From: Candidatus Sericytochromatia bacterium
GTDB taxonomy: Bacteria; Cyanobacteriota; Sericytochromatia; S15B-MN24; JAQBPE01
Direction: 5' to 3'
Assembly (NCBI GenBank): GCA_040400605.1
Contig: JBBAPZ010000006.1
Span: 97,524-161,523 of the forward strand
Length of the DNA stretch: 64,000 bases
A model generated the notes under the pieces. The model was not told where the DNA came from, did not search any database, and saw only the letters and a list, made by a program, of their open reading frames with translations. Position numbers and translations under genes: made by a program. Shown in pieces: positions 2,953 to 41,084 of the stretch. The first letter of the stretch is position 1. The number at the start of each line of letters is the position of its first letter.

Positions 2953-4575
2953 TTATCTCCTCCGATACCAGACATAGCCCGCCAATGACAGCAGGAACAA
3001 GGGGAACACCAAAACACTACTGAACATGATCATCTGGAACTGCCACGGGGTAAAATTGATGTTCTTGCTGCTCATGTCCTTGGGCGGGATGGAGACCAGA
3101 CTTTCCTCGTCAGCCATCCAGTTGAGTGAATTCAAGAAAAGGTCCCCGTTGTTGAGATCACTGAAACACTGATTGCTCAAGAAACTGGAGTTCCCTGCAA
3201 CGATCAGGCGCCCTTTGCCCTTTTCAGCCAACATCATGATCGGCAAAGGCCCCTTCTTGTCCTTGGCAGCATCGAACTGGGGACGGCGTTCCATCAGGTT
3301 CGTTTCACCCCACGACTCCGCTGACGTTTCAACCAAGGGCGTCACATTGGTCACACCGGTTGGCAATGCCGCCGCCTTACCCAAGGAACGTGCCGACAGG
3401 AAATACGTCACACCCAAGCCCTGCGTGACGGTGTGGTAAGGAAACTTTGTAATCACAGGCGCTGCCATGTTGCCTTGCACATTGTTTCTGATGCCGGGCT
3501 CAAGCACGAGATCATCACGAACCTCAATGCCATAGTTCTTCACCATGTCACCCAATCCGGCATTCGTCGCCGGATGCAGCGAGACAAACACGCGACCACC
3601 ATTGTCAACATAGTTCTGCAAAGCGACCAACTCTTTTAGCGGCAACGGCTTGGTAGGCCCGGCAACAACTACCAACGCAGCGTCTGAAGGCACTTGGGCC
3701 CGGGAATACAGGGTTAATGAATCCGTCTTGTAGTTTTGTTTGGTCAAGGCATCCTTGGCATTACTCAACCCGAACCGGGTGTCGTAACTGTCCAAGGACA
3801 TTTCACCGTGCCCGGTCAAAAAGTAAATGACCTTTTGGCCGGATTGCGTGACTTTCAACAAGGCTGACGTGAGATCTTGTTCCTGAGAAGCCGTGATGGT
3901 CGTCTTGCGGGTGCCCCGTTGCAGCACGCTGGTTCCATAGGCCGTGACGTTTTCAGCGCGCGCAATTGCCGGTTCACGGTCCGCATCAATGACATCCAAT
4001 GTCAGGCGATCGCCCGCTTCATACTTGTATTCGTTCCACAAAGTCTTCAAATTCGTCGAATAACTGTCCCCGGATTTGATGAACAACGTCACCTTGACCG
4101 GCTCTTTCAAGTTCTTGAGGATCTTTTTGGTCTGTTCAGACAAACTGTATTGCTTATCCTTGGTCACATCCCAATGCAACGGGTGTCTCACACCGATATA
4201 GTTCAATGCACCAAGAATTCCGATGAAGGCCAAAATCTGGACCGCTCCGGTCATGCCGCTCACCGCGTGACGATGACGGAAAGCCTTCACAATCTGCTTT
4301 TCATAAATGAGCGCCGTCGTCAGGACATACAGCACCATAAATACATAACCGGCATTGCGAATCCAACCCGTGGCACTGACCCAAAACACAGGCAGATTCC
4401 CAGCCCATTTCCACTGCAGGCCCGGTACCGTGAACGGCGCAGCCAAGAAACCCAGCAACAGAGCGACAACCAAACACACGATCGCAAGCAACCCGAAATA
4501 CAGATTACTCTTGTCGAGGGCGGGTGGTACCCGCGTCTCATCCAACTGCGACTTTTCTTTATCCATAGCAACCAA
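2953..4575 (-). CDS. GldG-like ABC transporter auxiliary component
   Basis: 540 aa with N-terminal TM helices, a large extracytoplasmic domain and a C-terminal TM (MIMFSSVLVFPLFLLSLAGYVWYRRR). Located between an ABC-2 permease and a DUF4340 gene. Confidence 0.75.
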   Translation of the reverse strand: MVAMDKEKSQLDETRVPPALDKSNLYFGLLAIVCLVVALLLGFLAAPFTVPGLQWKWAGNLPVFWVSATGWIRNAGYVFMVLYVLTTALIYEKQIVKAFRHRHAVSGMTGAVQILAFIGILGALNYIGVRHPLHWDVTKDKQYSLSEQTKKILKNLKEPVKVTLFIKSGDSYSTNLKTLWNEYKYEAGDRLTLDVIDADREPAIARAENVTAYGTSVLQRGTRKTTITASQEQDLTSALLKVTQSGQKVIYFLTGHGEMSLDSYDTRFGLSNAKDALTKQNYKTDSLTLYSRAQVPSDAALVVVAGPTKPLPLKELVALQNYVDNGGRVFVSLHPATNAGLGDMVKNYGIEVRDDLVLEPGIRNNVQGNMAAPVITKFPYHTVTQGLGVTYFLSARSLGKAAALPTGVTNVTPLVETSAESWGETNLMERRPQFDAAKDKKGPLPIMMLAEKGKGRLIVAGNSSFLSNQCFSDLNNGDLFLNSLNWMADEESLVSIPPKDMSSKNINFTPWQFQMIMFSSVLVFPLFLLSLAGYVWYRRR

Positions 4576-4636
4576 TCTCCTATCAGGGCTCTCACCCAGT
4601 TTCTCAAGTCAAGCTCAAAAACAAGTGAGACTTATC

Positions 4637-5347
4637 CTAACGCCAGTGATAGGTCTCGACCGAACGCACCGTCAAAAACAGCGATACCACAATGAAGCTG
4701 AGGTAGAAAATCAGATCCGAACTCTCGATAATGCCACGCCCAAGCTTATCTTGGTGGTTCATCACCGACAAATAAGTCAAGACGTCCCCGGCCGTGCCAC
4801 CAAAGACCTGACCGGCTGAAGGCAACAACCAGAGCAACAAAGACACGGCAAAACTGACCATTGCTGCGATGATCATGTTGGATGTCAACGAACTGGCCCA
4901 TAAGCCGACCGCCAAGAATGACGCACCAAGCAAAAATGACCCGAGGTAGCCGGTAAACAGCATGCCCCAGTCAAGCGACGTAGTAAGACAAAGTCCGAGC
5001 GGAAAGACCAAGGTCAGGGCCATCAGAAACATCAAGTAGCCCAAGGCTGACAAATATTTGCCCAAGACCAGGTCGTGATCACGAATCGGTGAGGTCAAGA
5101 GCAGTTCAATTGTGCCTGTTTTGCGTTCTTCCGCGATGAGCCTCATGGTCAAAGCAGGCACAATCAGCAAGAACATCACGGCCATGTTTTGAAACAGCGG
5201 TTGGAAGTTTGCCTGGCGGGTGTGATAGATAATGAGCGAAAACAAGTAGCCTACGATCGCAATGAACATCGCCGCGATGACATACGCCAAAGGCGAGGCA
5301 AAATAGGCTCGAAACTCGCGCTCGGCGATCGCCATAATCTTAGACAT
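4637..5347 (-). CDS. ABC-2 family transporter permease (GldF-like)
   Basis: Multi-TM protein with the ABC-2 motif IAEREFRAYFASPLAYVIAAMF. Start chosen at ATG 5347 (MSKIMAIAEREF) with a GGAGG 6 nt upstream; it overlaps the ATPase stop by 8 nt. Confidence 0.8.
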   Translation of the reverse strand: MSKIMAIAEREFRAYFASPLAYVIAAMFIAIVGYLFSLIIYHTRQANFQPLFQNMAVMFLLIVPALTMRLIAEERKTGTIELLLTSPIRDHDLVLGKYLSALGYLMFLMALTLVFPLGLCLTTSLDWGMLFTGYLGSFLLGASFLAVGLWASSLTSNMIIAAMVSFAVSLLLWLLPSAGQVFGGTAGDVLTYLSVMNHQDKLGRGIIESSDLIFYLSFIVVSLFLTVRSVETYHWR

Positions 5348-6314
5348 GATGCACCTCCTTGACCGCGGCATCGTCTGACGCACCACTCGTCAATTTCAAG
5401 AAAATATCTTCCAGTGACAGGTTGATGCTCTTCATCTCAACCAGATTCCAACCCGCGCCGACGACCAAACTGGCCACTTTTTCACGAAGATCCGACTCAC
5501 CTCGACTGGTTAACTCAACCAGGACGAGATCCACTTTCTCCGGGTGAGCGCTCACCTGGAGATCACTGACGCCCGGCAATTCCAGCAAACGCGCCTTCAC
5601 TTCGGTCATCGGACCACGAACCGTCACAGACAGGCGTTCGCCACCTTGCAAACGTTCTTCGAGGTCTTCGGGCTTGCCCTCCGCCACGACGCGCCCTTGG
5701 TTGATAATCAACACGCGGGAGCACGTATTCTGAACTTCCTGCAAAATATGCGTGGACAAAATAATCGTGTGGTTCACCGACAATTCTTTGATCAACGCAC
5801 GAATCTGAATGATCTGACCCGGGTCTAAACCACTGGTCGGCTCATCAAGAATCAAAACCGGCGGATTGTGGATCAAAGCTTGCGCGATGCCGACGCGTTG
5901 CCGATACCCTTTCGACAGTTGACCAATCACCTGATTGGCGCGATCCCGCAAAAAACACTTCTCCAAAACAAAATTCAACCGCTCCTTGCGAACCTTGCGG
6001 TCCAGACCCTTCAGCTTCGCAACGAAGTTTAAATAATCCGACACCGTCATTTCCGGATACACCGGCGGAAGCTCCGGCAAATACCCGAGCAAGGCCTTCG
6101 CCGCCAAGGTGTCTTCAGCCATGTCATGGCCACCAATTTCAACAGTGCCCGAGGTCGGACTCAAAAAACCGGTCAACATCCGCATCGTCGTGGACTTGCC
6201 AGCACCATTAGGCCCCAAAAAGCCAATAACTTCACCTGCGTCGACCCGGAAACTGACATCATTGACCGCCGTGCGATCGCCGTAGCGTTTGATCAGATTT
6301 TTGACAACTATCAT
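5340..6314 (-). CDS. ABC transporter ATP-binding protein (GldA-like)
   Basis: Walker A GPNGAGKST, signature LSKGYRQRV and Walker B LILDEPTSGLD are all present. Start re-set to ATG 6314 (MIVVKNLIKRYG) with GGAG 6 nt upstream; the track's 6383 start adds 23 unlikely residues. Confidence 0.85.
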   Translation of the reverse strand: MIVVKNLIKRYGDRTAVNDVSFRVDAGEVIGFLGPNGAGKSTTMRMLTGFLSPTSGTVEIGGHDMAEDTLAAKALLGYLPELPPVYPEMTVSDYLNFVAKLKGLDRKVRKERLNFVLEKCFLRDRANQVIGQLSKGYRQRVGIAQALIHNPPVLILDEPTSGLDPGQIIQIRALIKELSVNHTIILSTHILQEVQNTCSRVLIINQGRVVAEGKPEDLEERLQGGERLSVTVRGPMTEVKARLLELPGVSDLQVSAHPEKVDLVLVELTSRGESDLREKVASLVVGAGWNLVEMKSINLSLEDIFLKLTSGASDDAAVKEVHHV

Positions 6315-6885
6315 GGGCGTCTCCACTTCTTCATGCCTCGGTTCTCCCTTACTTTTCAAGCCGTCACAAACGTATCTTTGCAACGTCCGACAACGAAGGC
6401 ACGCAGGCTCTTGACCAATTCGTGCACCATCAACGGATGGCCGTCTGGTATTTTACCAAACCTTCAAGGAAATATTACAGGTGCACGAAAAACGAAAAAA
6501 CACTTCAACCTTCAAAGGCACATCGCACGCAAAGAAGCGCGACGCCATCCACCAAGCGACGCGGCCTGATTCAGCGCTTCAAACTGCCAATCAAGCCCGC
6601 CTGCGACAGTTTAATCCCAGGAAATCATCACCCGATCGATTGAAACGATTCGATGGGCACGACGGTTGGTCTTCATTTGCACGTGACGTAAATTTACACA
6701 ATCACGGTAAGGATTTTCCAGAAACGTTTCGATTTATTGACCCGCCGAGCACGTGTCAAGCGCTTGGTGTGATCACCCTGCATCAATGCCCAAAGTCACT
6801 CGACGTGCAACCTATCCGTGACATTGTCAGTCTGCGTGAGACGAACTTGTCGAGCCAACAGCCGTTCAAAATGCCGTCAAGGCCC

Positions 6886-7971
6886 TTACGCCCGAGCTAC
6901 CGGCGAGTAATAATGGCTCATGCGCGTCCAACCTGAAAAGAAGTCCGGCAACTCTTGGAGCAAGAAATTCGAATTTGCTACCCAACGGGTACGACCCGTA
7001 TCGGTGTCATGAACCCGAAACTCGCGATCATAGGCCCCTTGCCGTGTACCCGTCAGCAACATGAAATGGCCAGACCCATTTTGATACTCCACACGAATGG
7101 GAACGTCATACCCCTCAACGAGTGTTCGCGCAATATGGTCCAATGCCTGTGAGGTACTGGACACGGAATAGCCCGAATACCGAACATCGGTCATGGTCGA
7201 CACATATTTGTTGACCAGCTCATCAAGGGCAATGCCCCGTCCACCGCTTTGTCCAGGGAGGACCGCTTTGCCCCCAAACTCTTCCAGCCACTCTTTTTGC
7301 TGCGAGGCCACGCCAAATGCGGTGCCGTAGGGATCAACCTGCGCCGGATTCTGCCACCGGTTCAACTCCCACGCATAACGTGGATTGGCTTCTCCCGCGA
7401 GCAACTGCAACACGGCTGGCCCACAGGAATCCTGCCATTGTTGCTTTAAATCCTGACTGTCCCGCATTGTGGACATTGAGTAAATCGTTGATTCACTCTG
7501 CCCCCGCATCTGATTCGCATAGTCCACCACGTTTTCCCACGGCTCCCTGGCTGCCAGCGCTTTCAGGATAAAAACCTGCTCCAATCCCGTATAAGCCGCA
7601 TTGACGAGATTACGAATGGACTCAAGCTGCAAGCCATTATACTGATTCAGCATGCCAACAAGGGTCTGGTACTGCGAAAACCCGGCGAGATCCTGCATCG
7701 CGCCTCGGTACAGAATGGTCGACAATTCACGACGCAACCCGTCGGGATTGCGATAATCAACCTGGACCAAAGTTCTCAAATCGCCACCCGCACTACCGCC
7801 AATCGGCGAAGCAGCCGTGACATCAGCCTTCGCCGCCGGACGGGCCTGCCAAGTATCTCGCCCCAAACCGGCTGTCGCCCCACCCATGGACGACTGCACA
7901 GGGCTGAGATATTGAACGGCAAGCCGTGCCGTGGCAACCGGAATCAGTGGATTGACGGTGCGAATGGTCAT
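6886..7971 (-). CDS. hypothetical protein with C-terminal peptidase-C39-like (papain-fold) domain
   Basis: QDSCGPAVLQLL resembles the nCGPtSlaMvL Cys motif of the C39_2/BtrH_N family. A downstream SGHFMLLTG (His) and RVHDTDTGRTRWV (Asp) follow. The N-terminal ~180 aa has no recognisable domain and no clear signal peptide. Confidence 0.5.
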   Translation of the reverse strand: MTIRTVNPLIPVATARLAVQYLSPVQSSMGGATAGLGRDTWQARPAAKADVTAASPIGGSAGGDLRTLVQVDYRNPDGLRRELSTILYRGAMQDLAGFSQYQTLVGMLNQYNGLQLESIRNLVNAAYTGLEQVFILKALAAREPWENVVDYANQMRGQSESTIYSMSTMRDSQDLKQQWQDSCGPAVLQLLAGEANPRYAWELNRWQNPAQVDPYGTAFGVASQQKEWLEEFGGKAVLPGQSGGRGIALDELVNKYVSTMTDVRYSGYSVSSTSQALDHIARTLVEGYDVPIRVEYQNGSGHFMLLTGTRQGAYDREFRVHDTDTGRTRWVANSNFLLQELPDFFSGWTRMSHYYSPVARA

Positions 7972-8166
7972 AGGCCTCTAATCACACAAGCAGTCAGGTG
8001 AGTACTGTTTTCTTTATGGACCGTTTGGCCGCACATCTTGCTAAAAAACTTTTAAAACCATGTTTTGCTTAAGCTAGGTCGCAAAAGATGAGGCCGCTTA
8101 TTGTGGGATGACGACGTGTGCAAAGCCGAGACCATCGCCCCCGCCAAGCGAGCAAAGTCTGGGAGT

Positions 8167-9174
8167 TCACTCGCTTCGGGTGGCATTAACCACCGAGACA
8201 GGCACGCGTGCCTCCAGAGAAGCCGCGTTCCACGTGGCATTCGTGGAGGCAGTGATCACGGTCTGCCCCGGCGCCAACGACACAACACGCCCCGTCTCAC
8301 TGACCGTCACGATGCTCGAATCACCCGTACCCCAATGGACATCCGCATCGATGGCACCACCCCACGTCGTGATTGTCGAACGCAACCACGACGTATCCCC
8401 GACTCGCATCGTCAGTGCAGACGGTGTCACACCAATGCCGCGGATCGCCTCTTTCGCCAAAGGCGCCTGCACCGTGACCTGGGTCTTCGCAGTTACACCG
8501 TCGTAGGACTGTGAGGAAGCCTCAATCGTGACAACACCTGGCCTTAGTGCCAACAAATCACCATTATCCCCGATCTGAGCGATCGTTGGATCAGAACTGC
8601 GCCAACGCGCCTGACCGACCACCTCGGCACCACCCGCACCCTGCGAAAAAACGAATTGCCACGTTCTGCCAACGGCTACCAGCGCGTCCGTGGGCTGAAT
8701 GCGCGCCTGAATAATACCGTCAAACCGATTTTCTGGTAACCGAGCTTCCACCCCGACACTCCCATCGGTTCCCAGGACACCTGCCGCCGACACAACCTGT
8801 AACGTGGCGCGGGCTTCACGCGGCGGGTTGACGGTTGTTGCCAAAATCGTGACACGTCCCTCACGCAAACCACGGACAAGGCCTCGGTCAGTGATACTCG
8901 CGATTGCCTGGGATGATAGTCGCCACCGTGCGGCCACACCAAGCGCCAGTCCCGCCTCGTCACGTCCAATCACGTTGAATTGCCCCGTCTCTCCCACCCG
9001 AATGCTCAAGGTGGCCGGCTGCACCTCCAGGCTGAACAGGCGCGAGCCCTCCGAATTACCTGGATTCGGTGCCAACGGCAGATCATTGTTGCAGGCCATT
9101 GCCCCACACGCAGCGACAGCCACCAGCAAACGACGGGCGCCAAGGCGATTCAAATGACGGAAAAGCCGGGTCAT
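8167..9174 (-). CDS. lipoprotein with tandem bacterial Ig-like (Big_2-type) domains
   Basis: Lipobox LLVAVAACGAMAC followed by about four ~75-aa repeats with the Big_2-like pattern (L.V.P....L.VGET..L.A......V.W.SSD..IA.V...G.V.A...G...ITA). Its start overlaps the upstream phosphatase stop. Confidence 0.6.
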   Translation of the reverse strand: MTRLFRHLNRLGARRLLVAVAACGAMACNNDLPLAPNPGNSEGSRLFSLEVQPATLSIRVGETGQFNVIGRDEAGLALGVAARWRLSSQAIASITDRGLVRGLREGRVTILATTVNPPREARATLQVVSAAGVLGTDGSVGVEARLPENRFDGIIQARIQPTDALVAVGRTWQFVFSQGAGGAEVVGQARWRSSDPTIAQIGDNGDLLALRPGVVTIEASSQSYDGVTAKTQVTVQAPLAKEAIRGIGVTPSALTMRVGDTSWLRSTITTWGGAIDADVHWGTGDSSIVTVSETGRVVSLAPGQTVITASTNATWNAASLEARVPVSVVNATRSE

Positions 9175-9908
9175 TCCCTGACATCCTCACTTTTTCGGGG
9201 AGCCACGCGCTCCCAGTGTGTCATCAACCACGCATACACACGTTGCCAGACACCTCGCCCCGTGCTTGGGGTGACCGTCGCTGGGATTGGCCGATTCAGC
9301 AAGCGACACTGTTCGGTCACCGGCAACTCCGACCACCAGGCGTAAAAATCCGGTACATAATCAAGCTTGACACGCTGTCCGTGCTCATTGAGTCCGAACT
9401 GACGCATTTCTGCGATCGCCTCCTCAACAGTCCAGCCATCCCGCGCGATGCGCAGGCAAGCAGCCATCGTGCCAGTGCGATCCACCCCGTGGTAACAATG
9501 AAAAAAAACCACGCCGTGCGCCGGGTCCGTCACATTCATCAAAAACCGTGCGGTGTCGAGATGCGACGGAGCAGCCAGTGGTGGAAGCGGCAAATAGACA
9601 TAGTTCAACGCAAGCTCAGCCAACACCTCCCGTTCATGATCACTCTCCAGTCGCAAATTGATCACCGTGTGCACACCGAGTTCCTTCAACCGGACAAAGG
9701 CCTTACGGCTCGGCTGCGCACCGCGAAAAATCCCTGCACCCAACTCACCAAAACGCTCAACTTGATCACCCCCGGGAAACCAACGGGTCACCTCACCATA
9801 AAGCCACAGACCGGCCTGACGCAACACGGGCAAGTGCTCTCCGGCACGCCTGACACGCGTCGCAAAACCATGCACCATCGCAGCAAAACGCGGCGAATCC
9901 GACTGCAT
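9171..9908 (-). CDS. protein tyrosine / dual-specificity phosphatase (CX5R active site)
   Basis: HCYHGVDRTG is the CX5R P-loop of the PTP/DSP superfamily. Start taken at ATG 9908 (MQSDSPRF) with GAGG upstream; the longer track ORF to 9980 would overlap the kinase. Confidence 0.7.
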   Translation of the reverse strand: MQSDSPRFAAMVHGFATRVRRAGEHLPVLRQAGLWLYGEVTRWFPGGDQVERFGELGAGIFRGAQPSRKAFVRLKELGVHTVINLRLESDHEREVLAELALNYVYLPLPPLAAPSHLDTARFLMNVTDPAHGVVFFHCYHGVDRTGTMAACLRIARDGWTVEEAIAEMRQFGLNEHGQRVKLDYVPDFYAWWSELPVTEQCRLLNRPIPATVTPSTGRGVWQRVYAWLMTHWERVAPRKSEDVRE

Positions 9909-9963: not shown

Positions 9964-11745
9964 TCAAGATCCTGGCCCATCGTGTCCTCCCCTCGCGCCC
10001 TTGGTCATCCCGACACCGGTCACATCAGGCGCACTCGGCGGCAACCGCAATCGAAACGTCGCACCAGCACCACGCTCAGAAAACACCTCCAGCGTTCCGC
10101 CAAATTTACGTACGATCTGCTGACTCACAGACAATCCAAGCCCCGTGCCCTTGCCCACCTGTTTCGTCGTAAAAAACGGATCGAAAATTTTGCCCAAAAT
10201 GGCATCGGGTACCCCTTCGCCATTATCGACAATATCCACCTGGACCATCCCTGCCTCAAATGCGGTCAAAATGCGCAAAACACCCCCTGCCTCATCACCA
10301 AATCGCGCCTGAATCGCATCCATCGCGTTCACGATCAGATTCGTTAAAACCTGCCCCAACTCCGTCAACGTCCCCATCACGTGCGGTAACTCAACCAAAG
10401 TCAATTCGCGAACCACCGACATATGCTTCAAACGGTGACTAAGCAACTCCAGCGTATCGTGCAAAACGGCTGTCAACGATATAGGTCGGTACTCCGGTGC
10501 GGGTTGTCGCGCAAAATTCAACAAATTCACCACAATACGCTTGCACCGTTGCGCACCTGCCTCAACCAAGGCCAGTTGATCGCACAACTCAGGATCCTCG
10601 ATATCCATCCGCAACAACTGCACATTCGCCAAGATCGCCGAAAGCGGATTATTCAGTTCGTGCGCGACACCCCCCGCAAGCGTACCAATCGTCGCCAATT
10701 TCTCGGTCTGCACCAACTGGGCCTGCGTTTCCTGCAAACTTCTCAACGCCTGCTCCAACTCAGCCGTACGCTCCTTCACGCGCTGCTCGAGCACTTCATT
10801 AAGGCCATTGATCGTCAAGTAGGCCTCCGCATTCTGCAAAACCAAGGACAACTTCAGCGCGACCTGATTCACAAAGGTCACGTCATTGCGGTGAAACAAC
10901 CGATGTTCCGCCGCACGAAATACAGCCAAAACCCCGTACAACTTTCGATTGGCCATAATCGGTGTCAACGCGCCATGCCACGCCCGCCGCGCATCCTCCT
11001 GCACCAACGCCTCAGTCTCGCCCCCCACAACCACGCTTCGCCTCAGATCCAAACAGCGCAAAATCGCCTGCCCCTGCTCCGTTGAACGCCAAGCGTCTGT
11101 GGGTGCAACACCGACAACCGCCTCCAAAGCCAGATTTGTTGGGTCCCCGACGCACATAACCACCCACGTCTGCTCGGCGGACACCGTATCATGGATCTGA
11201 CGCACACTGTGCTTCAAAATTTCTTTCACATCATAAGACGCAATCAGAAAATCAAAATCACCCAACGCCCGTCCATAAGCCTCCTTGTACCGAACCTCCA
11301 AGCGTGCATTCAACGCATCCAACGCCATCACCCACTGCGCCTGCAAGGATGCCAGCATAGCCAAATCCACCGCCTCAACCGATGCACCAGATTCAAACTC
11401 AATCTGCACCAGGCCTACAGCTCGCGTACCCCTTGCCAACGGCAGCATCACGACATCAGCATCCGCCAAACCGCCTTCAAGGGTTCCAACCACAGCGCCA
11501 CGCCCATAAAGTGGCGCCGGTTCAGCCAAAATGCGCTGGCGCGACCACTCGGGCCTGACCCCGTGACGGGGCAGGTTCCAACCCGGCACGAATCGGACCG
11601 AGCGTATAGGCCACAACTGTCTCAAAATCGTCTCGACTGTCTTTAAACAGGCTGCCGCATCCCCATCCGCATTCAATATCGTCCCAAGCGACGCAAGCAA
11701 TTGCCAGCGATAATCCACGTTGTCCCTAACCAAATCTGCGTGCAT
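9964..11745 (-). CDS. cytoplasmic sensor histidine kinase with two GAF-like N-terminal domains (HisKA + HATPase_c), no adjacent response regulator
   Basis: H-box [11 protein letters not shown] box, G1 (DNGEGV) and G2 (GTGLGLS) boxes all present. No TM segments. Start at ATG 11745 (MHADLV) with AAGGG 9 nt upstream; the alternative start at 11826 would overlap the upstream gene by 62 nt. Confidence 0.8.
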
Positions 11746-11764
11746 CGGCGTCACCCTTTTTGAC

Positions 11765-12910
11765 TCAACGAGCCGCGTGATACGCCCGCATCCCAGCGAA
11801 CGCAACGTCATAACGATTATGCGCATTCCACATCATGTACCCTGTCGCACGCGCATCACTGCCTGCGCGAAGTTGCTCCACGATGTAGCGCGCGTCAAAA
11901 CGGGACACCTTGTAAGGCATCGCCTGCATCCAGGGCCGCACCACCACAGATGTGCCGGCAACCCGATCATTCAACAGGGTCAACCCCTTGAACATAAACT
12001 GATACGGTGCATTGGCCGGCCGCGCAATGCCTGCAAAACCATCATTAAAATGAGAAGGATACAACATTGGGCATAGGACATCCGTGTGGCGCGCCAAATC
12101 AGACAAGCGTTGCCCGGTGATGCGTACGTCAATGTCCATTGCCCAAGCCATAATGCCGTACACATCAATGGATACACGCATCCCCAAGCGATGAAGCGTC
12201 TCGTGCGCGCGCTTCAGAAAGGCAGTGATAATCGCATGCTTGGGTGTTCGCGATTCATCGAAGGCGTAACGCGCATTTTGTGTATCGCCCATTGCCGGAA
12301 AGCGGATGTAGTCAAACTGCACTTCATCAACCCCCGCTTTCACGAGCTCCTTTGCCAAGTCGATGTTATAGTCTTGACACGCCGGTAAAGATGGATCCAA
12401 CCACGACTGTCGGCCCAATTCCTTCCACGGGCCACCCTTGATAGACCGTGCCGCCAATGAAGGCAGCTTCTGCGCCACAATTGGATCATGAAAACACACC
12501 ACACGCCCCGCGACCTGAATCCCATAACGATGTGCCAACTGCACCCTCGCTTTGAGATCGCGCAAAGGCCCCGCAGCACTGGCCTTAACCGTGCGAGCCA
12601 AGGCCACTTCGGAGGGATAGGACACAATCCCGCCTTCATCCTTGGCATCAAAAACAATCAGATTACCCCCCGCAGCCTTCAGATTTTTCAACAGTGTCTC
12701 AAATCTCGGCAAAGCCATTGACGTCGCCGTCACGTAAATCCCACGCAACGGGGGTACTGTCGCCGCATCTTGTGTGACCCCAGACACGTCCCCGATTGTT
12801 CGCGCCTTTGCAGCAATCATTTTCGATTGGGATTCTTGGGCCATGATGGGTGCGCCAGTCAAACCCAACGTGGTCATCAGCGCGCCAAACAAGGCGGTTC
12901 TTACACCCAT
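11765..12910 (-). CDS. secreted putative glycoside hydrolase-like protein (GHL10/DUF4015-like TIM barrel)
   Basis: Signal peptide MGVRTALFGALMTTLGLTGAPIMAQ, then the pattern typical of the family-10-like glycosyl hydrolase (YngK-like) proteins (GIYVTA...LIVFDAKDEGG...DYIRFP). Family assignment from memory only. Confidence 0.55.
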   Translation of the reverse strand: MGVRTALFGALMTTLGLTGAPIMAQESQSKMIAAKARTIGDVSGVTQDAATVPPLRGIYVTATSMALPRFETLLKNLKAAGGNLIVFDAKDEGGIVSYPSEVALARTVKASAAGPLRDLKARVQLAHRYGIQVAGRVVCFHDPIVAQKLPSLAARSIKGGPWKELGRQSWLDPSLPACQDYNIDLAKELVKAGVDEVQFDYIRFPAMGDTQNARYAFDESRTPKHAIITAFLKRAHETLHRLGMRVSIDVYGIMAWAMDIDVRITGQRLSDLARHTDVLCPMLYPSHFNDGFAGIARPANAPYQFMFKGLTLLNDRVAGTSVVVRPWMQAMPYKVSRFDARYIVEQLRAGSDARATGYMMWNAHNRYDVAFAGMRAYHAAR

Positions 12911-13917: not shown

Positions 13918-14228
13918 AGTACCTCACGAGGCATTGATTCAGGTGAACGCCACGCTGACACATCGGTTTTTGTTTAAAAGGTAAATGGCAAAATTAAAAC
14001 ATCAGGCAATCAATTGCCACGTGCTGTACAACACCAAAAATTTAGTTGCCAATCAAGGCATTTTGTTACAGGACATTCCGAGAGTTATACAGTGACGCAT
14101 AGGTTTTAGTTCAAAAATTAACCAGCGGAATCAAAACGTCAGGCGATGACTCGCCAATATTGATCATCAGCCAAAAATTGGTCATCAAACAATGCGTTGC
14201 TGCACGATGGTCAACATTGACAATTGGG

Positions 14229-15638
14229 TCAAGTGACAGCGGGAGGTCTGAGCCATCTAACATAGACCCCAAACCCGATCGCGATCCAAACCAGAAACAT
14301 GGACCAGACAGTCCAACTGAGACCCCACATCAGATAAAGGTTAATCGCGATCGCCAATCCCGGTAAGAATGGCGCGCCGGGGCATCGAAACGGCCGCGGC
14401 GCCTCCGGAAACTCGTGTCTCAACACCAGCACCGCCGCACTGACGACGCTAAAAGCAGCCAGAGTACCCAAGCTGACAAGGTCCGCCAATTGCTCAAGCG
14501 GCACCACCATTGCCAAAAACGCGGTCACGCCGCCCAAGATGAGCACGGCCGCATAAGGCGCACCGGTTGTCGGGTGCAAACGGGTAAATGCCGCCGGCAT
14601 CAATCCATCCCGGCTCATCACGTATAAAATGCGGGTTTGCCCGATCGAAGCAACCAAAATCACGCTCAGGATCCCCACCACCGCGACCACGGACAGAACC
14701 AAGGCCGCAACCGGATGACGCATTTGTTCCAACGCATGCGCCAGAGGTTCCTGGACGTGCCTCAGCTCATTCATTGGCAAAACCGCAACCAACACCGTCG
14801 CAACAGCGACGTAAAGCAGCGTCACCAGGGTGAGTGACAGCGCGATGGCGCGTGGCAAGGTACGTTGCACGTCTCGGGTTTCCTCCGCCACTGTCGATAC
14901 CGCATCGAAGCCGATAAACAGAAAAAACACCACCGCCGCACCCGACACAACGCCCCCCCAGCCAAAAGGCATAAAAGGGTTAAAATGCGCAAACTGCATG
15001 CCTGGAACACACAAAATCAAAAATAATCCCAATACCGCAATTTTCGCTGTAACCATGGCGTTATTGAAACGCGCACTCTCACGAATACCGAACAGCAACA
15101 AGGCCGTCACGAACGCGACGGCTGCACCAGCCGGGAGATTGAACCAACCACGTGCCGAGGTGCCGGGTATCAAGTGGCCGGGCGCATAGAGCAACGTTTT
15201 GGGCAAGGTGACACCGAACTGGGCCAGCAAGGCCTGCAGATAACCGCCCCAACCAGCCGCCACAGCCGAGTTGGACAACCCATATTCGAGCAGCAGATCC
15301 CATCCCATCAAAAAAGCGACGAGTTGTCCGAAGGCGGCATAGGCATAACTATACGCGGACCCGGACGCAGGCATCATCACCGCCAGTTCACTGTAGCAAA
15401 GCGCCGCAAGCAAACAGGCGATCGCAGCCAGCACAAAGGACAACACGACCGCAGGTCCCGCATGTTGCGCCGCCACCAACCCCGGCATCACAAAAATGCC
15501 AGCGCCAATCGTGCAACCGATACCCAAGGCCGTCAGGGACCAAAGCCCCAGCACGCGCTTGTGATCAGATTCAGAACCTGATTCACCCACCGCAGTAAAA
15601 CTGGCGATCGACTTCCTAACAAACCACGGATGTGACAA
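14229..15638 (-). CDS. APC-family amino acid permease
   Basis: 469 aa with 12 predicted TMs. The N-terminal motif LGLWSLTALGIGCTIGAGIFVMPG is typical of amino acid/polyamine/organocation transporters. Confidence 0.85.
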   Translation of the reverse strand: MSHPWFVRKSIASFTAVGESGSESDHKRVLGLWSLTALGIGCTIGAGIFVMPGLVAAQHAGPAVVLSFVLAAIACLLAALCYSELAVMMPASGSAYSYAYAAFGQLVAFLMGWDLLLEYGLSNSAVAAGWGGYLQALLAQFGVTLPKTLLYAPGHLIPGTSARGWFNLPAGAAVAFVTALLLFGIRESARFNNAMVTAKIAVLGLFLILCVPGMQFAHFNPFMPFGWGGVVSGAAVVFFLFIGFDAVSTVAEETRDVQRTLPRAIALSLTLVTLLYVAVATVLVAVLPMNELRHVQEPLAHALEQMRHPVAALVLSVVAVVGILSVILVASIGQTRILYVMSRDGLMPAAFTRLHPTTGAPYAAVLILGGVTAFLAMVVPLEQLADLVSLGTLAAFSVVSAAVLVLRHEFPEAPRPFRCPGAPFLPGLAIAINLYLMWGLSWTVWSMFLVWIAIGFGVYVRWLRPPAVT

Positions 15639-24498: not shown

Positions 24499-25530
24499 AT
24501 GTTGCAATTTTTGCGCCAGTATACGTGTCCGACGCGAGTGCAGGGTGCTTGGTTTTTGTTTGTGGTACTGATGGCGATCGGGTGTGGCAAGGCGCCGGTC
24601 GGTTCCACGGTCCTGCCGCAGGATCCGCCGCGATCGTCACTCAAACGTGTGGGAACGAGTGGTCTGACGCGTTTTCTTGCGCGTAACATTCGTTATCGGG
24701 TTGATCGCAACATTGCGCTCACGGTGCACGACCTGAACGCGGACCTGTTGCTGAAAGACACCAGCCAGCCATTCAACCCCTCAAACAAAGTCGGTTACAG
24801 TGTCATGCAACATTACAGCAGCGTTGACGTGGACGGTGAGAGTCTGAGTCACCTGATGAATGATTATGTCTTACGCGATCCCGAATCCCCTCTGCGAGCG
24901 ATCAACATTGTTTTAACCGCTGATCAAATGCGTTTGAGCGGCCAGATGAAGCAGGGATTGTGGGTGCCTTTCGAAATGGAAGGGCGGATTGAGTCCACAC
25001 CAGAGGGACAGATTCGCATGATGCCAACGGTCATCAAGTCGGTGGGCGTACGCGTTGATGGTTTGATGAACCTGTTTGGTATCCGCATCGCCACTTTATT
25101 GCAAAACATGACTGACAATGGCTTGACGTTGAAGGGCAATCAAATTTTGATGGATGTCGGCAAGATGTTTCCGCCGCCACGATTATTGGGTCGTGTCAGT
25201 GTGGCGCGCGTGCAGAACCAGTTGCTTCATATCGAATACAACGATGGTCGGGCACAGCCGTGGCCCAAGTTGCCAATCCCCGATGCGCGAAGCTGCATCG
25301 CGATGTGGGGTGGTGATGTGGTAATCAACAACTGCATCACCATCGACGCCAAATTTCAGATTATGGATATGACACCGCAAACACCCATGGTTTATGCAGC
25401 GGATCGCTACCTCGACGGTCTTGAGGCGGGATTCAACATCCCGACCAAAGATGGACACAACATCTCATACGTTCCCGACATTCTCGATTTTGAGGGCAAA
25501 ATGCCCCGCTACGTCCCCAATCTGCGGTAA
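24499..25530 (+). CDS. hypothetical lipoprotein (lower-GC orphan)
   Basis: Signal peptide plus lipobox FLFVVLMAIGC. 343 aa with no recognisable domain. GC about 50%. Confidence 0.5.
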   Translation: MLQFLRQYTCPTRVQGAWFLFVVLMAIGCGKAPVGSTVLPQDPPRSSLKRVGTSGLTRFLARNIRYRVDRNIALTVHDLNADLLLKDTSQPFNPSNKVGYSVMQHYSSVDVDGESLSHLMNDYVLRDPESPLRAINIVLTADQMRLSGQMKQGLWVPFEMEGRIESTPEGQIRMMPTVIKSVGVRVDGLMNLFGIRIATLLQNMTDNGLTLKGNQILMDVGKMFPPPRLLGRVSVARVQNQLLHIEYNDGRAQPWPKLPIPDARSCIAMWGGDVVINNCITIDAKFQIMDMTPQTPMVYAADRYLDGLEAGFNIPTKDGHNISYVPDILDFEGKMPRYVPNLR

Positions 25531-33307: not shown

Positions 33308-35379
33308 CAAATCGACTGCATCCACGGGCGCAAGTGACCACCGGATTGCGTCAACAGCCTATCCGCAGTCACGGCATCCACGCCTTGCTGATGCATCACC
33401 ACCGCACGCTTGACCGAGCCCCCCGCTGTATCAAGGAGGCGTTGGCTGGATGAATCATCTTCACGGGTCAGTTGTGCAACAAGACGCCGTGCCCGTTGAC
33501 GCAATTTCTGATTCGAACACTGCACATCCACCATCAAATTGTCGTAAACCTTGCCCAATTGCACCATGGTCAAGGTTGTGATCATATTCAAGACCATCTT
33601 GGTTGCCGAACCCGCTTTCAGGCGCGTGGAACCTGCGACAATCTCCGGCCCGACAGGGAGAACCAAGACGTGATCGGGCACAAAGGGGGTCGCGTGTGGC
33701 TGGTTGCAGGTTAGCAGCACCGTTGCTGCTTCAGCTGCGCGTGCCGCCGCGAGGGCCCCCCAGACATACTGTGCGTGTCCGTTGGCACTGATTCCGACGA
33801 CGATGTCGTGAAGCCCAACCGTTAAAGCGTTGACATCCGCCGCGCCAGCCGACGCGTCATCCTCAGCGCCTTCGATGGCATGTCGCAGGGCGCGATCGCC
33901 CCCCGCAACAATGCCTTGCACCTGCCACTGCGGCACTGAAAAAGTCGGGTAACACTCGGATGCATCCAGCACGCCAAGGCGACCGCTCGTGCCAGCCCCA
34001 ACATAAATCAGGCGCCCCCCGTCACGCAGGCGTGCAACGGTATCGTCAATCACTGCAGCGATCGCCTCCGTGGCGGTGTCAATCGCCCGTAACACGTCGT
34101 AGTCCTGCGAATGCATCACCTGGACCGCGCTGCGGGTGTTCAGGCGATCCAGTCCGGAACTGACCGGATTGGACGCCTCCGTCAACAACTGGGCTGTCCC
34201 TGCCACAACACCTGCCAGTACCCCGCGCCCCCAATTGTTTCCAGGCACGATTTGACCCAAAACCGCTGAGTGCGAGGCACCGGTCACGTGCGGCAATTGG
34301 TTGATTTGGCCGTGAACGGCCTGGTACGCCAAAATGGCGAAAGCGAACGCTTCTTTGTGATCGGCGTTGATCCCCAACTCATCACTGACACACACCCGAC
34401 ACTCGGGCAAAACCTTGACCAGCGAATCAAGCAACGCCGGGTTCCTTGCACCACCACCGGACACCCACACGGTTCGCGGAAACTGCCCTGCAGGCAAAAA
34501 CCGACGGTATTGATCAGCCACACACGCAGCCGTGTAAGCCGTCGCAGTCGCTATCAAATCAACTCCCCAAACGCCCATTCCCTCAGCCTGATGCTTCAAT
34601 CGTTCGACGAACGCCGCGCCATAACGCTCGCGCCCCGTCGACTTGGGCAACGGCTGCCGTAAATAATCATCCGCGGCCAACCAAACAGACAGCAGTTCGT
34701 CTTGAACGCGCCCGGCCTTGGCAAGCAAACCGCCATCATCCCAGCGTTGCGCGCCACCGCTGAAATCTTCCACCAAGGCATCAATGACCATGCAACCGGG
34801 ACCCGTATCGAAAGCCAGCACCTTGGCTGGATCACCATCGGCACTCAAACAGGTCACATTGCCGATGCCGCCGAAATTCTGCATCGCCATCGATTCACCT
34901 GAGCGCCCCCAACACAGCCAATCGACATAGGGTACCAAGGGCGCACCCTGTCCTTGGCGCGCCACATCACCGACTCGAAACTCACCCACCGTGGTGATCC
35001 CGGTGCGCGCCGCGATAACGGCAGGTTCACCCAGTTGAAACGTGAATGCTTCCGGCCCGCACGGCTGGTGCCAGACCGTTTGTCCCGCCACGCCAATGAG
35101 ATCGATTTGTTCCGGACGCAACCCGCGCTCACTTAAAAATCGCAGGACCAAATCAGCCCAATGTTCACCCAACGCGACATCCAAGCCCGCGACCTCAGCG
35201 ACACTGGCGAGGCCTGTTCGATAAAGCGCTGCGATGCGCGCGCGCAAGGACTCAGGCAAAGACCAGGTTGCAGCATCCAACAATTGTGCCTGCAACCGGG
35301 TCCCCCAACCCTGAATATCCACCAAAGCCACGTCACAACCATCAAGCGACGTGCCGGACATCAAGCCAATCACCCACAT
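33307..35379 (-). CDS. bifunctional fusion: anhydro-N-acetylmuramic acid kinase (AnmK, N-terminal) + N-acetylmuramic acid-6-phosphate etherase (MurQ, C-terminal SIS domain)
   Basis: N-terminus MWVIGLMSGTSLDGCDVALVD...PKSTGRE matches AnmK. The C-terminal half, GRLIYVGAGTSGRLGVLDASECYPTF...GSTRLKAGSATKMVLNMITT...GKVYDNLMVDV, matches MurQ. It is a single uninterrupted 690-aa frame. Confidence 0.8.
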   Translation of the reverse strand: MWVIGLMSGTSLDGCDVALVDIQGWGTRLQAQLLDAATWSLPESLRARIAALYRTGLASVAEVAGLDVALGEHWADLVLRFLSERGLRPEQIDLIGVAGQTVWHQPCGPEAFTFQLGEPAVIAARTGITTVGEFRVGDVARQGQGAPLVPYVDWLCWGRSGESMAMQNFGGIGNVTCLSADGDPAKVLAFDTGPGCMVIDALVEDFSGGAQRWDDGGLLAKAGRVQDELLSVWLAADDYLRQPLPKSTGRERYGAAFVERLKHQAEGMGVWGVDLIATATAYTAACVADQYRRFLPAGQFPRTVWVSGGGARNPALLDSLVKVLPECRVCVSDELGINADHKEAFAFAILAYQAVHGQINQLPHVTGASHSAVLGQIVPGNNWGRGVLAGVVAGTAQLLTEASNPVSSGLDRLNTRSAVQVMHSQDYDVLRAIDTATEAIAAVIDDTVARLRDGGRLIYVGAGTSGRLGVLDASECYPTFSVPQWQVQGIVAGGDRALRHAIEGAEDDASAGAADVNALTVGLHDIVVGISANGHAQYVWGALAAARAAEAATVLLTCNQPHATPFVPDHVLVLPVGPEIVAGSTRLKAGSATKMVLNMITTLTMVQLGKVYDNLMVDVQCSNQKLRQRARRLVAQLTREDDSSSQRLLDTAGGSVKRAVVMHQQGVDAVTADRLLTQSGGHLRPWMQSI

Positions 35380-35487
35380 CGTGAAATCCCCCCACGGCGC
35401 ACCGGACACGTGGCCACTTCCGCCCATATCGTGTACATTGAACCATAAACGACATGACGCAAACCAGATTATGACCGTGTAAACAAG

Positions 35488-37086
35488 TTGTCGAAACGAA
35501 TTGCCCCATCTCTTCTAAGCAGCCGTGAACTCATTGGGCAACTGATGATGCCCATGTTGCCTGATACTGCGGACCTGCTGACACCTAAAATCTGGCAAGA
35601 TGTTCTCAACCGACACTCGGCGTTTGGATTCGGTGGCTACATCGTCTTTCGTGGCGACTGGCACAAGACGCCACCTTTGCTGGCCAGTTTGCAAGAACAC
35701 AGCGAGATCCCGCTTGTTTTCGGATCAGACCTTGAGCGCGGTTGCGGACAGCAATTGACGGGCGCAACCGTTTTCCCGATGCAAATGGCCTTGGGTGCCA
35801 CGCGCAACAGCGATCTCGCGTACCAACAAGGGGCCATCACGGCGCTCGAAGCGCGACGGGCGGGCCTCCACTGGATCTTTGCCCCGACATTGGATTTGGT
35901 CACGCGGCCAGACAATCCCATCATCAACGTTCGGGGCCTTGGTGAAAATCCCAGGCTGGTTGGCCGTCTTGGCAGCGCGATCATTTCGGGAATGCAAGAA
36001 CATGGTGCCATTGCCTGTGCCAAACATTTCCCGGGACATGCCGAAACGTCTGATGACTCCCATACACGTTTGCCAACCTTGCATATCTCTCGTCAACGAA
36101 TGGAATGGCATGATCTCGTGCCATTTCGCGATTGCATCCGCGCCGGGCTTCAATCGATCATGGTCGGTCATTTGGCCGTACCAGCGCTGGATGATACGGG
36201 TATGCCAGCATCATTGTCGCGGCGCATCGTGACGGACTTGTTGCGTGAACAGATGAATTTTGACGGACTCATCGTGACGGATGCGCTGGATATGGGGGCC
36301 ATCACAGCCCGCTTTGACCCGGGGCAGGCGGCCGTTCGGGCCTTGCAGGCAGGCGTGGATGTCTTGTTGATGCCCCCTGACCCGGAGGCCGTCGTCAGCG
36401 CCGTCTTGCTTGCACTCGAAGAAGGGGTGTTAAGCAGGCGCGGCCTGCTTGACTCGGTCGAACGCCTTGATCGGGCGCGTTTGCAGCTCGGACTGTACAG
36501 TTCCGACGGTGACGACGACCTGTTACCTGTGGCGCACTGGCCCGATTACACTCCGGCTGTCCAGGACATCGCCACGCACGCAATCACACTGGTTCACAGT
36601 GAGGAAGACACCGTGCCGTTGCGTGGTAGCGTGGCTGCAATCGCACTGGATGACGACAATGATCCGACAGTCACAGACACTTGGGTGCGGGCCTTGGAAA
36701 GTCGGCACGGGGTCAGTTGCGCGGTTTTGGATAGCCAAGCCACGCCAGAGGCGATCAACGACGCCCTCGAACAGGCCAGTCAGAGCGAGACGGTGGTGGT
36801 GGGCGTTTTTTCAGCCGTCCGGGCGTGGAAGAATCGTGTGACTTTGGTGAAGCATCTGGATGACGTCGGCCGGCGATTATCTGCCTTGGCCTGCAAACGA
36901 CGTGTGGTCGTCTCTTTCAGTTCTCCGTTCATGGCTCAAGACTGGGCGGGCATTGATGCCTACATCTGCGCGTATTCGCCGCATCCGCTGTGTCAATTGG
37001 CCGCACTGGACTGCTTGTGGGGATTGGCACCCTTCAAAGGTCACCTGCCGGTGACGTTGGATAACGATGCGGCCAGGTCGCTGTAA
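35488..37086 (+). CDS. nagZ: beta-N-acetylhexosaminidase (GH3, NagZ-like)
   Basis: GH3 motifs KHFPGHAETSDDSH and GLIVTDALDMGA. Divergent from the AnmK-MurQ gene. Confidence 0.85.
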   Translation: MSKRIAPSLLSSRELIGQLMMPMLPDTADLLTPKIWQDVLNRHSAFGFGGYIVFRGDWHKTPPLLASLQEHSEIPLVFGSDLERGCGQQLTGATVFPMQMALGATRNSDLAYQQGAITALEARRAGLHWIFAPTLDLVTRPDNPIINVRGLGENPRLVGRLGSAIISGMQEHGAIACAKHFPGHAETSDDSHTRLPTLHISRQRMEWHDLVPFRDCIRAGLQSIMVGHLAVPALDDTGMPASLSRRIVTDLLREQMNFDGLIVTDALDMGAITARFDPGQAAVRALQAGVDVLLMPPDPEAVVSAVLLALEEGVLSRRGLLDSVERLDRARLQLGLYSSDGDDDLLPVAHWPDYTPAVQDIATHAITLVHSEEDTVPLRGSVAAIALDDDNDPTVTDTWVRALESRHGVSCAVLDSQATPEAINDALEQASQSETVVVGVFSAVRAWKNRVTLVKHLDDVGRRLSALACKRRVVVSFSSPFMAQDWAGIDAYICAYSPHPLCQLAALDCLWGLAPFKGHLPVTLDNDAARSL

Positions 37087-40276: not shown

Positions 40277-40634
40277 GATCCCCCTCACACCGTCACCCCC
40301 CAGTGTGCCAATCCTTGGTTGGGCGTCAAACAGACCCCAACGCATCTATCCGATAACTCATCACCAAGCTTGCCTCCATCTATTTAAGGTCCGATTAAAA
40401 CCTGTAAAAATTCTGACACACAGCACCGGGTAAAGACGGCGCAGCGAGCGCAAAACACAGATCGCAAGCGACGTTATCCCAGTTGTGTCTGTGTTGTTTG
40501 CCCTGTGAGATATGGGGCCTGGTTCCATTCATTCGGGCGTGGCGCCAGACGCGGGTCAAGATACCCAAGCGTCCGCGCAAAGTCGCTGTTTGTTGCCGTT
40601 GGAGCAGGGTGGAAACGATCACCACCGGTGCGGT

Positions 40635-41084
40635 TCATACCATCAGATCAACGAGCATGCCACGAATTTCATTGAGCCGGGCCAGAATGTCGAGCGATTT
40701 GGCTTGTCCGCCCAACAACAGTTCGGTCAATTCCGCCAGTTTGCGATCGACTTCCTGCACCAGGACAAACGCACGATTGCGGCGATCGCTGCGCTTCTCA
40801 ACGCGTGTCATATGAGCCACCGCCTCTTTGACGAAGTTGCCCACCAAACGGCGATAACGTTCGATTTCAGCCCGAATGGGATGACGGGCGAGGCGTTTGG
40901 ACTGCTCCTCGATATCGGCAAGAATCGCAATCATATGACCTTGGGCCAGCTTCAGTTGCGATTCTTGCATATGTTGGGCAAACTTCACGGCACTGGAAGC
41001 CACGATAACCGGTTCCTGACCAGGTGGTTTGGTTGGCCCCAATGTGGGGGTCTGTTGGTGATCGACGGGCTTCAGCATGGTCAT
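40635..41084 (-). CDS. DUF327 (YaaR-like) family protein; start uncertain
   Basis: C-terminal region VEKRSDRRNRAFVLVQEVDRKLAELTELLLGGQAKSLDILARLNEIRGMLVDL resembles YaaR/DUF327. Start trimmed to ATG 41084 so it does not overlap uvrC. Confidence 0.4.
   Translation of the reverse strand: MTMLKPVDHQQTPTLGPTKPPGQEPVIVASSAVKFAQHMQESQLKLAQGHMIAILADIEEQSKRLARHPIRAEIERYRRLVGNFVKEAVAHMTRVEKRSDRRNRAFVLVQEVDRKLAELTELLLGGQAKSLDILARLNEIRGMLVDLMV

Follow-up and report, generated by a model that had tools for sequence, protein, structure and literature searches.

Gene and genomic context

A 64,000-nt stretch of the genome of Candidatus Sericytochromatia bacterium (contig JBBAPZ010000006.1; this whole stretch is hereafter called the window, and positions are counted from its first nucleotide) contains at positions 6886–7971 of the minus strand a complete open reading frame (ORF) of 361 codons plus stop, which encodes a leaderless, C39-like cysteine peptidase with a predicted papain fold. 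The ORF starts with an ATG at 7971, which is preceded 4 nt to the 5' side by the Shine-Dalgarno-like sequence AGAGG, and ends with a TAA at 6886–6888. These boundaries are exactly those proposed in a first-pass annotation made from the sequence alone, which had left the strand unstated, and the three strings quoted there were located at residues 180–191 (QDSCGPAVLQLL), 300–308 (SGHFMLLTG), and 319–326 (RVHDTDTG). The gene has 11 close homologs and is under purifying selection, with a ratio of nonsynonymous to synonymous substitution rates (dN/dS) of 0.21 over its whole length relative to an 89% identical ortholog on a metagenomic contig (L018). No promoter or terminator signal above that of shuffled sequences was detected near the gene, and a scan of positions 6000–8400 against Rfam at E ≤ 1 gave no match.

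On the minus strand, the genes of a DUF4015 protein, a GAF histidine kinase, a PTP/DSP phosphatase, and a Big_2 lipoprotein precede the peptidase gene, which is followed by the genes of an ABC ATPase, an ABC-2 permease, a GldG-like protein, and a DUF4340 protein and by an ORF at 1341–1961. The annotation of these neighbors agrees with the earlier description of the gene as lying between an ABC exporter operon and a group of kinase, phosphatase, and Ig-lipoprotein genes.

Domain organization and predicted fold

An AlphaFold2 model built on an alignment of 12 sequences, in which the predicted local distance difference test (pLDDT) mostly ranged from 80 to 95 for residues 75–360, divides the protein into a disordered tail, a helical module, and a catalytic core. 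The core encompasses residues 168–361 (6889..7470, minus strand, as are all features of the gene), with an unusually long segment of 119 residues between the catalytic cysteine and histidine. In an alignment of 141 sequences (the window protein and 140 of the best profile hits), only Q177, C183, P197, and H302 were invariant, and D322 was conserved in 94% of the sequences. As these catalytic columns are invariant or nearly so across 141 divergent relatives, the quoted strings are not chance motifs, and the Cys/His/Asp arrangement read from them holds. The predicted nucleophile C183 (codon 7423..7425) is the first residue of the helix 183–195, the central helix of the model. The predicted general base H302 (7066..7068) is located in the strand 301–311 and aligns with the histidine of C39_2, StbD/CdiA-CT, and BtaeB, whereas D322 (7006..7008), the predicted third residue of the triad, ends the adjacent strand 316–322 and aligns with the aspartate of “ADPWGG” in C39_2 and of “YDPWKG” in StbD. 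The invariant Q177 (7441..7443; codon checked) would provide the oxyanion hole; its six-residue distance to C183 is the same as the spacing of Gln19 and Cys25 in papain. The arrangement of these elements in the model is that of a clan CA fold, and the Gln, Cys, His, Asp residue set of this clan is intact.

Structural neighbors of the model were staphopain C (family C47; structural-neighbor figure 12.5), streptopain and interpain (C10; 11.5–11.6), the C39-type toxin StbD/CdiA-CT of Citrobacter rodentium (PDB entry 8ssm; 11.5), the C39 domains of PCAT1 (11.2) and ComA (11.0), a C39-like protein of Bacillus anthracis (10.2), the C39-like C-terminal domain of BtaeB (a type VI secretion system [T6SS] effector; 8.2), and AvrRpt2 (C70; 7.8). 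The top Foldseek match was full-length StbD-CT (8ssk; E = 1.4e-4). Because of these neighbors and the match to StbD-CT, the papain fold proposed for the C-terminal domain is confirmed at the level of the predicted structure, with the triad on the expected elements, while no single MEROPS family is clearly the best among the modeled neighbors. The secreted proteases staphopain (C47) and streptopain/interpain (C10) share only 7–13% identity with the window protein, no sequence-level signal was found, and their prodomains are unrelated to its helical module.

The N-terminal 180 residues, which the first-pass annotation had treated as one uncharacterized region, consist of two dissimilar parts. 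Residues 76–167 (7471..7746) form a conserved module of six predicted helices (76–92, 98–110, 113–124, 129–140, 145–155, and 160–167; pLDDT 80–95), in which K137, A141, and R156 are invariant within the close family. Relative to the ortholog on L018, the module has a dN/dS of 0.15, close to the 0.13 of the core. That this conserved module belongs integrally to the enzyme is strongly supported. About one fifth of the distant relatives listed align solely from profile position ~130 onward; the minimal unit thus includes helices 4–6, with helices 1–3 as an optional addition. The idea that the module is a removable prodomain, as in C10 and C47 zymogens, was rejected on three grounds: helices 4–6 are found in practically every relative, the constraint on the module is like that on the core, and alignment to the model was no better for zymogen structures than for mature ones.

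Residues 1–75 (7747..7971), in contrast, constitute an Ala/Gly/Thr/Pro-rich tail that is predicted to be disordered (pLDDT <50 at residues 1–73). The tail is variable among homologs, cannot be aligned between clades, and evolves nearly neutrally (dN/dS = 0.81). The absence of a clear signal peptide, already remarked in the first-pass annotation, is borne out by a Kyte-Doolittle maximum over 12 residues of only 1.46 at the N-terminus, compared with 2.42 in the neighboring Big_2 lipoprotein. The tail contains the sequence PIGGSAGGD (residues 56–64) with Gly-Gly pairs at 58–59 and 62–63, and Gly-Gly motifs are present in the ortholog tails as well. Self-processing at these motifs is conceivable, and nothing supports it. 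By eye, the disordered tails of leaderless family members (the relatives P0002–P0009, P0012, and P0017 and those encoded at loci L009–L011) also share a short “W[DR]xG[LF]”-like motif in addition to Gly-Gly pairs (e.g., GAAWDVGL, APWRPGLL, and TRWRPEFLYGP). The motif might serve as a short linear signal for targeting or processing; in the window protein (DTWQARP), it is weak or missing.

Relationship to known peptidase families

A scan of the protein against Pfam-A and NCBIfam found no family at E ≤ 10, and the gathering thresholds of PF13529, PF03412, and PF14399 were not reached. The match to PF13529 or PF14399 that had been expected from the first-pass annotation thus failed to appear, and a phmmer search of PDB sequences returned only a spurious hit to ribosomal protein L9 (E = 1.4). 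With the Pfam check failed, the question of affiliation was therefore decided by homologs and structure.

Among the 141 relatives, weak Pfam matches were found to Peptidase_C39_2 (PF13529; three proteins, best E = 2.4e-4), Peptidase_C39 (PF03412; one protein), and Peptidase_C70/AvrRpt2 (PF12385; four proteins), families that belong to the same clan and have the same fold. A broad family profile (A3) detected three proteins of related genomes whose genes are located within a few kb of a homolog (E = 4e-7 to 4e-6). These proteins are genuine Pfam members, with matches to C39_2 (1.7e-11), C39 (1.3e-7), and C70 (3.7e-7). Comparison of A3 with a profile of proteins passing C39_2 (A5) by hhalign yielded a probability of 87.7% and an E-value of 3.4e-6 over a span of only 70 C-terminal columns, which includes the His and Asp and leaves the Cys side unaligned; within it, “GHF” was paired with “LHY”, and “HDTDTG/HDPWTG” with “ADPWGG”. 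The detection of genuine members by A3 and the alignment of His and Asp argue for kinship to C39_2 and C70. We conclude that the window protein is in all likelihood a remote relative of C39, C39_2, and C70 and a member of no modeled family; it differs from these three by its extra helical module, a large insertion, and the absence of a fused ABC transporter.

When the family profile was searched against PDB, the top five matches were all interbacterial toxins, namely three StbD/CdiA-CT entries, a DUF4150 effector, and BtaeB, with sub-threshold E-values of 0.14–0.97 (8ssm, 0.14; 9l5u, 0.38; 9jdd, 0.97). All five aligned on the same “GH[FW]V...I[HY]DPWxG” segment.

Family size, distribution, and delivery fusions

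A word-indexed search of 5.8 billion proteins recovered the 11 close relatives, none of which has a Pfam domain. The closest is the 89% identical ortholog; the others are 39–45% identical over residues ~80–361. When 1.84 billion cluster representatives were searched exhaustively with a profile, the family grew to 666 or more clusters (50% identity; E ≤ 1e-3), of which 397 had E ≤ 1e-10 and 77 had E ≤ 1e-30. A second large word-indexed protein search with a 65-sequence profile added nothing new, and tblastn against plasmid and phage collections gave no match. All seven matches in the genome collection stem from metagenome-assembled genomes (MAGs) of Candidatus Sericytochromatia or from an unclassified “Cyanobacteria bacterium”, and two of the MAGs carry two paralogs. 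The source names of ten representative distant relatives were informative only in the cases of “VgrG” and “peptidoglycan hydrolase-like”.

Pfam scans of the 141 relatives revealed fusions of the peptidase to a variety of delivery and cell wall-binding domains: eCIS_core/DUF4157 of extracellular contractile injection systems (eCIS; five relatives), LysM (three), PG_binding_1 (three), PG_binding_3 (three), Phage_GPD/Phage_base_V, i.e., VgrG (two), and PAAR (P0100), OmpA, and T6SS_Tse3_N (one each). Ankyrin and annexin repeats were found as further fused domains. An N-terminus resembling a signal peptide is present in 38 of 158 relatives, and 12 of these have a lipobox. In the relatives P0074 and P0050, which are VgrG proteins of the “evolved” type, the peptidase domain is C-terminal; both are encoded in arrays of VgrG, PAAR, DUF4123, SMI1_KNR4, and Tae4 genes. 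At the level of the family, a putative toxin domain thus occurs on diverse delivery N-termini, as in polymorphic toxins. Pfam and NCBIfam do not detect the family, and proteins that contain it, even those with a fused VgrG or eCIS domain, are therefore annotated as hypothetical.

Several family members have additional features. In two giant relatives the peptidase domain is internal, at residues ~1855–2119 of the 2,309-aa protein P0111 (L023:6001–12930) and at ~2588–2853 of the 3,516-aa protein P0120. Besides the peptidase, P0111 has faint annexin repeats and a PI3/PI4-kinase domain; this unusual set of domains hints at a multi-domain effector directed at eukaryotes. A second type of paralog in the same MAGs (L012:1166–2662, L013:9008–10837, and L014:9038–10846) has a lipobox, an extra N-terminal domain of ~150 residues, and a very long Pro/Thr/Ala-rich linker in front of module and core, and lacks a partner gene of the kind described below. 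In another clade, the gene is found amid genes of predicted hydrolases (L001:4170–5507, 7048–7767, 7830–9419, 11310–12629, and 14048–14896; L004:1234–2703, 3963–4820, and 4928–6052; L007:2249–5892). These clusters encode two or three separate C39_2/C70-like proteins (one with EF-hands), Peptidase_C92, Amidase_2, a subtilase, an M23+SLT protein, and a CarboxypepD_reg/DUF4350 protein, and look like “arsenal” islands.

A recurrent partner gene

In four Sericytochromatia loci that are syntenic with the window, the peptidase gene is directly followed on its 3' side by an ORF of ~165–170 residues (L008:10845–11447, L009:7871–8374, L010:10931–11434, and L011:10633–11379), and an ORF of 141–145 residues follows the genes of the VgrG-fused P0074 and the PG_binding_1-fused P0047. 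Such partner ORFs (~140–170 aa) were located 3' of the peptidase gene in 5 of 11 sampled genomic contexts, these five being unrelated to one another; those outside the syntenic loci are at L015:10232–10669, L017:9757–10182, L021:7463–7894, and L022:8982–9407. The encoded proteins are rich in Ala and Leu, have no signal peptide, are probably helical, and carry the motifs “P[DE]xYLxxG[FY]” at the N-terminus and “HLxRV..Q.A” near the C-terminus.

Three tests support the assignment of these ORFs to what would be a single family. A profile of the four Sericytochromatia ORFs alone matched the VgrG-adjacent ORF with E = 1e-5 and 22 bits, compared with at most 9.2 bits for 2,000 shuffled sequences. 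The P0047-adjacent ORF was tied in only by BLASTP to the VgrG-adjacent ORF (E = 7e-5). A six-sequence profile then matched immediately downstream ORFs that had not been used to build it, at L021 (E = 1e-15) and, beside a second VgrG fusion, at L022 (E = 5e-12). Pfam, NCBIfam, and PDB contain no relatives of the partner, and its PDB matches are confined to Ala-rich designed helical proteins. No partner was found beside the lipoprotein paralogs (L012–L014), the genes of the “MKLDSF...” clade (L001, L004, and L007), P0012 (L019), or the 2,309-aa protein (L023).

From its position and distribution, the partner is probably an immunity protein. The use of the family as cargo of T6SS, eCIS, and the Sec pathway, together with a recurrent small partner, is strongly supported.

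At L021 and L022, the partner is followed by a second conserved ORF (L021:7887–8438 and L022:9473–9898; 34% identity, BLASTP E = 5e-24), which gives a three-gene module. This second ORF was found neither in the window nor in any other of the loci compared.

Comparison with known protease toxins

The toxins Cpe1, StbD-CT, EvpQ, and TsaP (PDB entries 8ssm, 8ssk, and 9l5u) are similar to the window family in several respects: in both groups, a papain/C39-like fold is combined with a Cys-His-Asp triad, and the “GH[FW]V...I[HY]DPWxG” segment around His and Asp recurs. VgrG or PAAR carriers and a small, leaderless downstream gene are also common to these toxins and to relatives of the window protein; the carriers are seen in the VgrG fusions P0074 and P0050 and the PAAR fusion P0100, and the conserved partner follows the genes of several relatives, whereas the window protein has neither. 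Like the window protein, StbD-CT has a helical N-terminal domain in front of the peptidase. The two groups differ in size, as the Cpe1-type domain is compact (~125–145 aa) and the core of the window family comprises ~195 residues with a large insertion, and their sequence similarity is not significant. Cpe1 and StbD-CT cleave the Gly-Gly of the HAGGK motif in GyrB/ParE and are neutralized by small cytoplasmic immunity proteins (PMC12136450; bioRxiv 10.64898/2026.05.07.723447), and C39-type enzymes including StbD-CT cut after Gly-Gly and can process themselves (bioRxiv 10.64898/2026.05.07.723447).

A C39/ComA-like papain-fold toxin domain with C/H/D residues, Tox-PL-C39, has been described as delivered by the type II secretion system, T6SS, and PVC-eCIS, the latter with a PVC metallopeptidase (Zhang et al., 2012; PMC3482391). 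Its delivery spectrum, compared by description, is that of the window family, which may or may not be identical with Tox-PL-C39. The description includes no Cyanobacteria-related lineages, helical module, or partner gene (PMC3482391).

The window copy in its locus

The block from the DUF4015 gene to the ORF at 1341–1961 is collinear, fully or partly, with L008–L011. The peptidase is 44–48% identical to its orthologs at these loci, and the neighboring proteins are 35–73% identical; the notion that the peptidase evolves faster than its neighbors was therefore discarded. Because of the synteny and a divergence within the range of the neighbors, the gene is best regarded as a vertically inherited, long-standing resident and not as a mobile cassette.

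Where L008–L011 carry the partner gene, the window contains a non-coding spacer (6501..6885, minus strand) with stops in all minus-strand frames. The non-coding stretch up to the next gene measures ~500 bp in the window (6384–6885) and ~650 bp in L018, whose peptidase gene likewise has no adjacent partner. Searches by tblastn and with two profile hidden Markov models gave no match to the partner anywhere in the window, and no paralog of the peptidase was found there. Published work on secretion systems in Sericytochromatia was searched as well and offered nothing relevant.

A segment of 170 nt that lies directly upstream of the ABC ATPase start and extends over it (6331–6500, minus strand) is 96% identical to L018 2341–2510; identity is 90% in the neighboring coding sequence, and the remainder of the spacer is highly diverged from L018. 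The segment has no Rfam match and a fold z-score of about -2, is undetectable in L008–L011, and probably functions as a promoter or 5' leader that is conserved ahead of the ABC-2/GldG operon.

Functional interpretation

The explanation that we consider moderately probable, judged from sequence comparisons and the model, is that the gene product is a soluble thiol endopeptidase of clan CA, without leader and with effector or toxin ancestry, and that the gene is a stand-alone, partner-less chromosomal descendant of such effectors. The enzyme would use C183 at the N-terminus of the central helix as nucleophile, with H302 and D322 completing the triad. The family unit of module and core would serve as cargo for antagonistic delivery by VgrG/PAAR proteins, eCIS cores, peptidoglycan-binding modules, or Sec and lipoprotein signals. 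By analogy with the nearest characterized relatives, Cpe1 and StbD-CT, the family would most likely poison cells by cleaving a target in the cytoplasm at a specific site, and the partner would most simply be read as the cognate immunity protein. In the window copy the partner appears to have been lost while the catalytic set is complete and evolves under purifying selection; this copy may thus be a protease that was domesticated or retargeted and would no longer need immunity.

A number of observations weigh against this explanation. The protein matches no modeled family, the alignment to C39_2 leaves out the Cys side, the links to the solved toxins are below threshold, and the assignment of the partner as immunity protein has a positional basis. 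The window protein has no recognizable delivery domain and, by hydrophobicity, no hydrophobic signal segment or transmembrane helix at its N-terminus. No T6SS or eCIS genes are encoded in the window, the rest of which is housekeeping. No remnant of the partner was detected in 6384–6885 by tblastn or the two hidden Markov models. Stable synteny and a divergence like that of housekeeping neighbors are unlike typical polymorphic toxin cassettes. The window protein is also atypical at highly conserved positions, carrying R239P (Pro occurs in none of 137 relatives, and L018 keeps Arg), D196N, and DTD in place of “DPW” at the catalytic Asp. Finally, a toxin active in the cytoplasm should harm its own cell if no immunity protein is present, and the toxin reading may therefore not apply to the window copy itself.

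Among the alternatives, an unlikely one is a housekeeping or regulatory protease tied to the neighboring Big_2 lipoprotein or ABC-2/GldG/DUF4340 genes, e.g., one processing an envelope or transport component, instead of an antagonistic effector. The gene order from DUF4015/PTP to DUF4340 is kept in the window and the four Sericytochromatia MAG loci despite the 44–48% identity of the peptidase, whose divergence is within that of the neighbors, and the window protein is accompanied by no delivery domain, signal peptide, or immunity-like gene. At L017 (5095–10182), moreover, a distant PG_binding_1-fused member and its partner directly follow an ABC ATPase and two ABC2_membrane_6 permeases, an arrangement that may be coincidental. 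Adjacency to ABC genes is frequent by chance. Gaps of ~195 bp upstream and ~500 bp downstream of the peptidase gene speak against tight operon coupling in the window; other clades of the family are found in unrelated contexts, and four of six syntenic genomes keep the same partner as the VgrG-fused toxin versions.

It is improbable that the enzyme is a peptidoglycan stem-peptide endopeptidase or amidase instead of a protein-directed protease. The fusions to peptidoglycan-binding domains and the lipoprotein paralogs would fit such a role, but the window protein lacks an export signal, and its structural neighbors are C47, C10, and C39 endopeptidases and not NlpC/P60 or CHAP enzymes. The recurring partner is leaderless even next to the PG_binding_1 fusion, which implies neutralization in the cytoplasm.

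We attach very little probability to a split PCAT-like system, in which the protein would act in trans as a double-glycine leader peptidase, or process itself, together with the adjacent ABC exporter. Kinship to C39 is real, enzymes of this type cut after Gly-Gly, and both the tail motifs and a transporter next door are at hand; however, PCAT-type C39 peptidases are fused to an ABC-C exporter or act with one, whereas the window protein is free-standing and the neighboring ABC-2/GldG/DUF4340 transporter has a separate ATPase and is not a PCAT. The tail evolves almost neutrally, and no bacteriocin-like gene of a double-glycine leader substrate was identified nearby, although small ORFs were not screened exhaustively. 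The residues preceding the Gly-Gly motifs of the tail do not appear to fit the classical double-glycine leader consensus. Use of the fold for non-peptidase acyl transfer (as in a gamma-glutamyl or phytochelatin synthase-like transpeptidase, a deamidase, or a transglutaminase), or decay to a pseudo-enzyme, is just as remote, since the Gln-Cys-His-Asp set is intact with a core dN/dS of 0.13 and the nearest relatives at the sequence level are endopeptidases.

Returning to effector ancestry, a further-reaching proposal, which we put forward tentatively and with clearly less confidence, is that the peptidase and its helical partner of ~140–170 residues might form a widespread, so far unrecognized effector-immunity family, the third C39-like lineage of interbacterial protease toxins, of which the window gene would be a copy long retained by a Sericytochromatia lineage and then domesticated. 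Such a family would have its own helical module, its own immunity fold, and delivery by T6SS, eCIS, and Sec, and a copy kept after loss of immunity would be an active protease with a new endogenous or extracellular substrate. As far as our searches show, the definition of family and partner is new, in contrast to the already known fold and overall toxin theme. The characterization of C39-type protease toxins disabling DNA gyrase and topoisomerase IV dates only from 2025–2026; the window family is larger and of different architecture. Its definition would make an effector/immunity pair annotatable and point to new protease specificities, and the partner-bearing and partner-less syntenic copies offer a natural experiment on toxin domestication. 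For the window itself the gain is modest: one more predicted cysteine protease in an uncultured, non-photosynthetic relative of the Cyanobacteria. Overall, the fold and catalytic residues named in the first-pass annotation stand, and its expected Pfam match and undivided N-terminal half do not.

Other features of the window

Elsewhere in the window, a 706-aa ORF (33310–35427, minus strand) fuses an anhydro-MurNAc kinase (AnmK) to a GKRP/MurQ-like SIS domain and adjoins a GH3 (NagZ-like) gene at 35488–37086; it would represent a fusion of two consecutive steps of cell-wall recycling. A 343-aa ORF at 24499–25530 (plus strand) has no Pfam match at E ≤ 1e-4. The same holds for the ~290 residues that precede the GIY-YIG domain in an 886-aa UvrC homolog encoded at 40512–43172 (plus strand).

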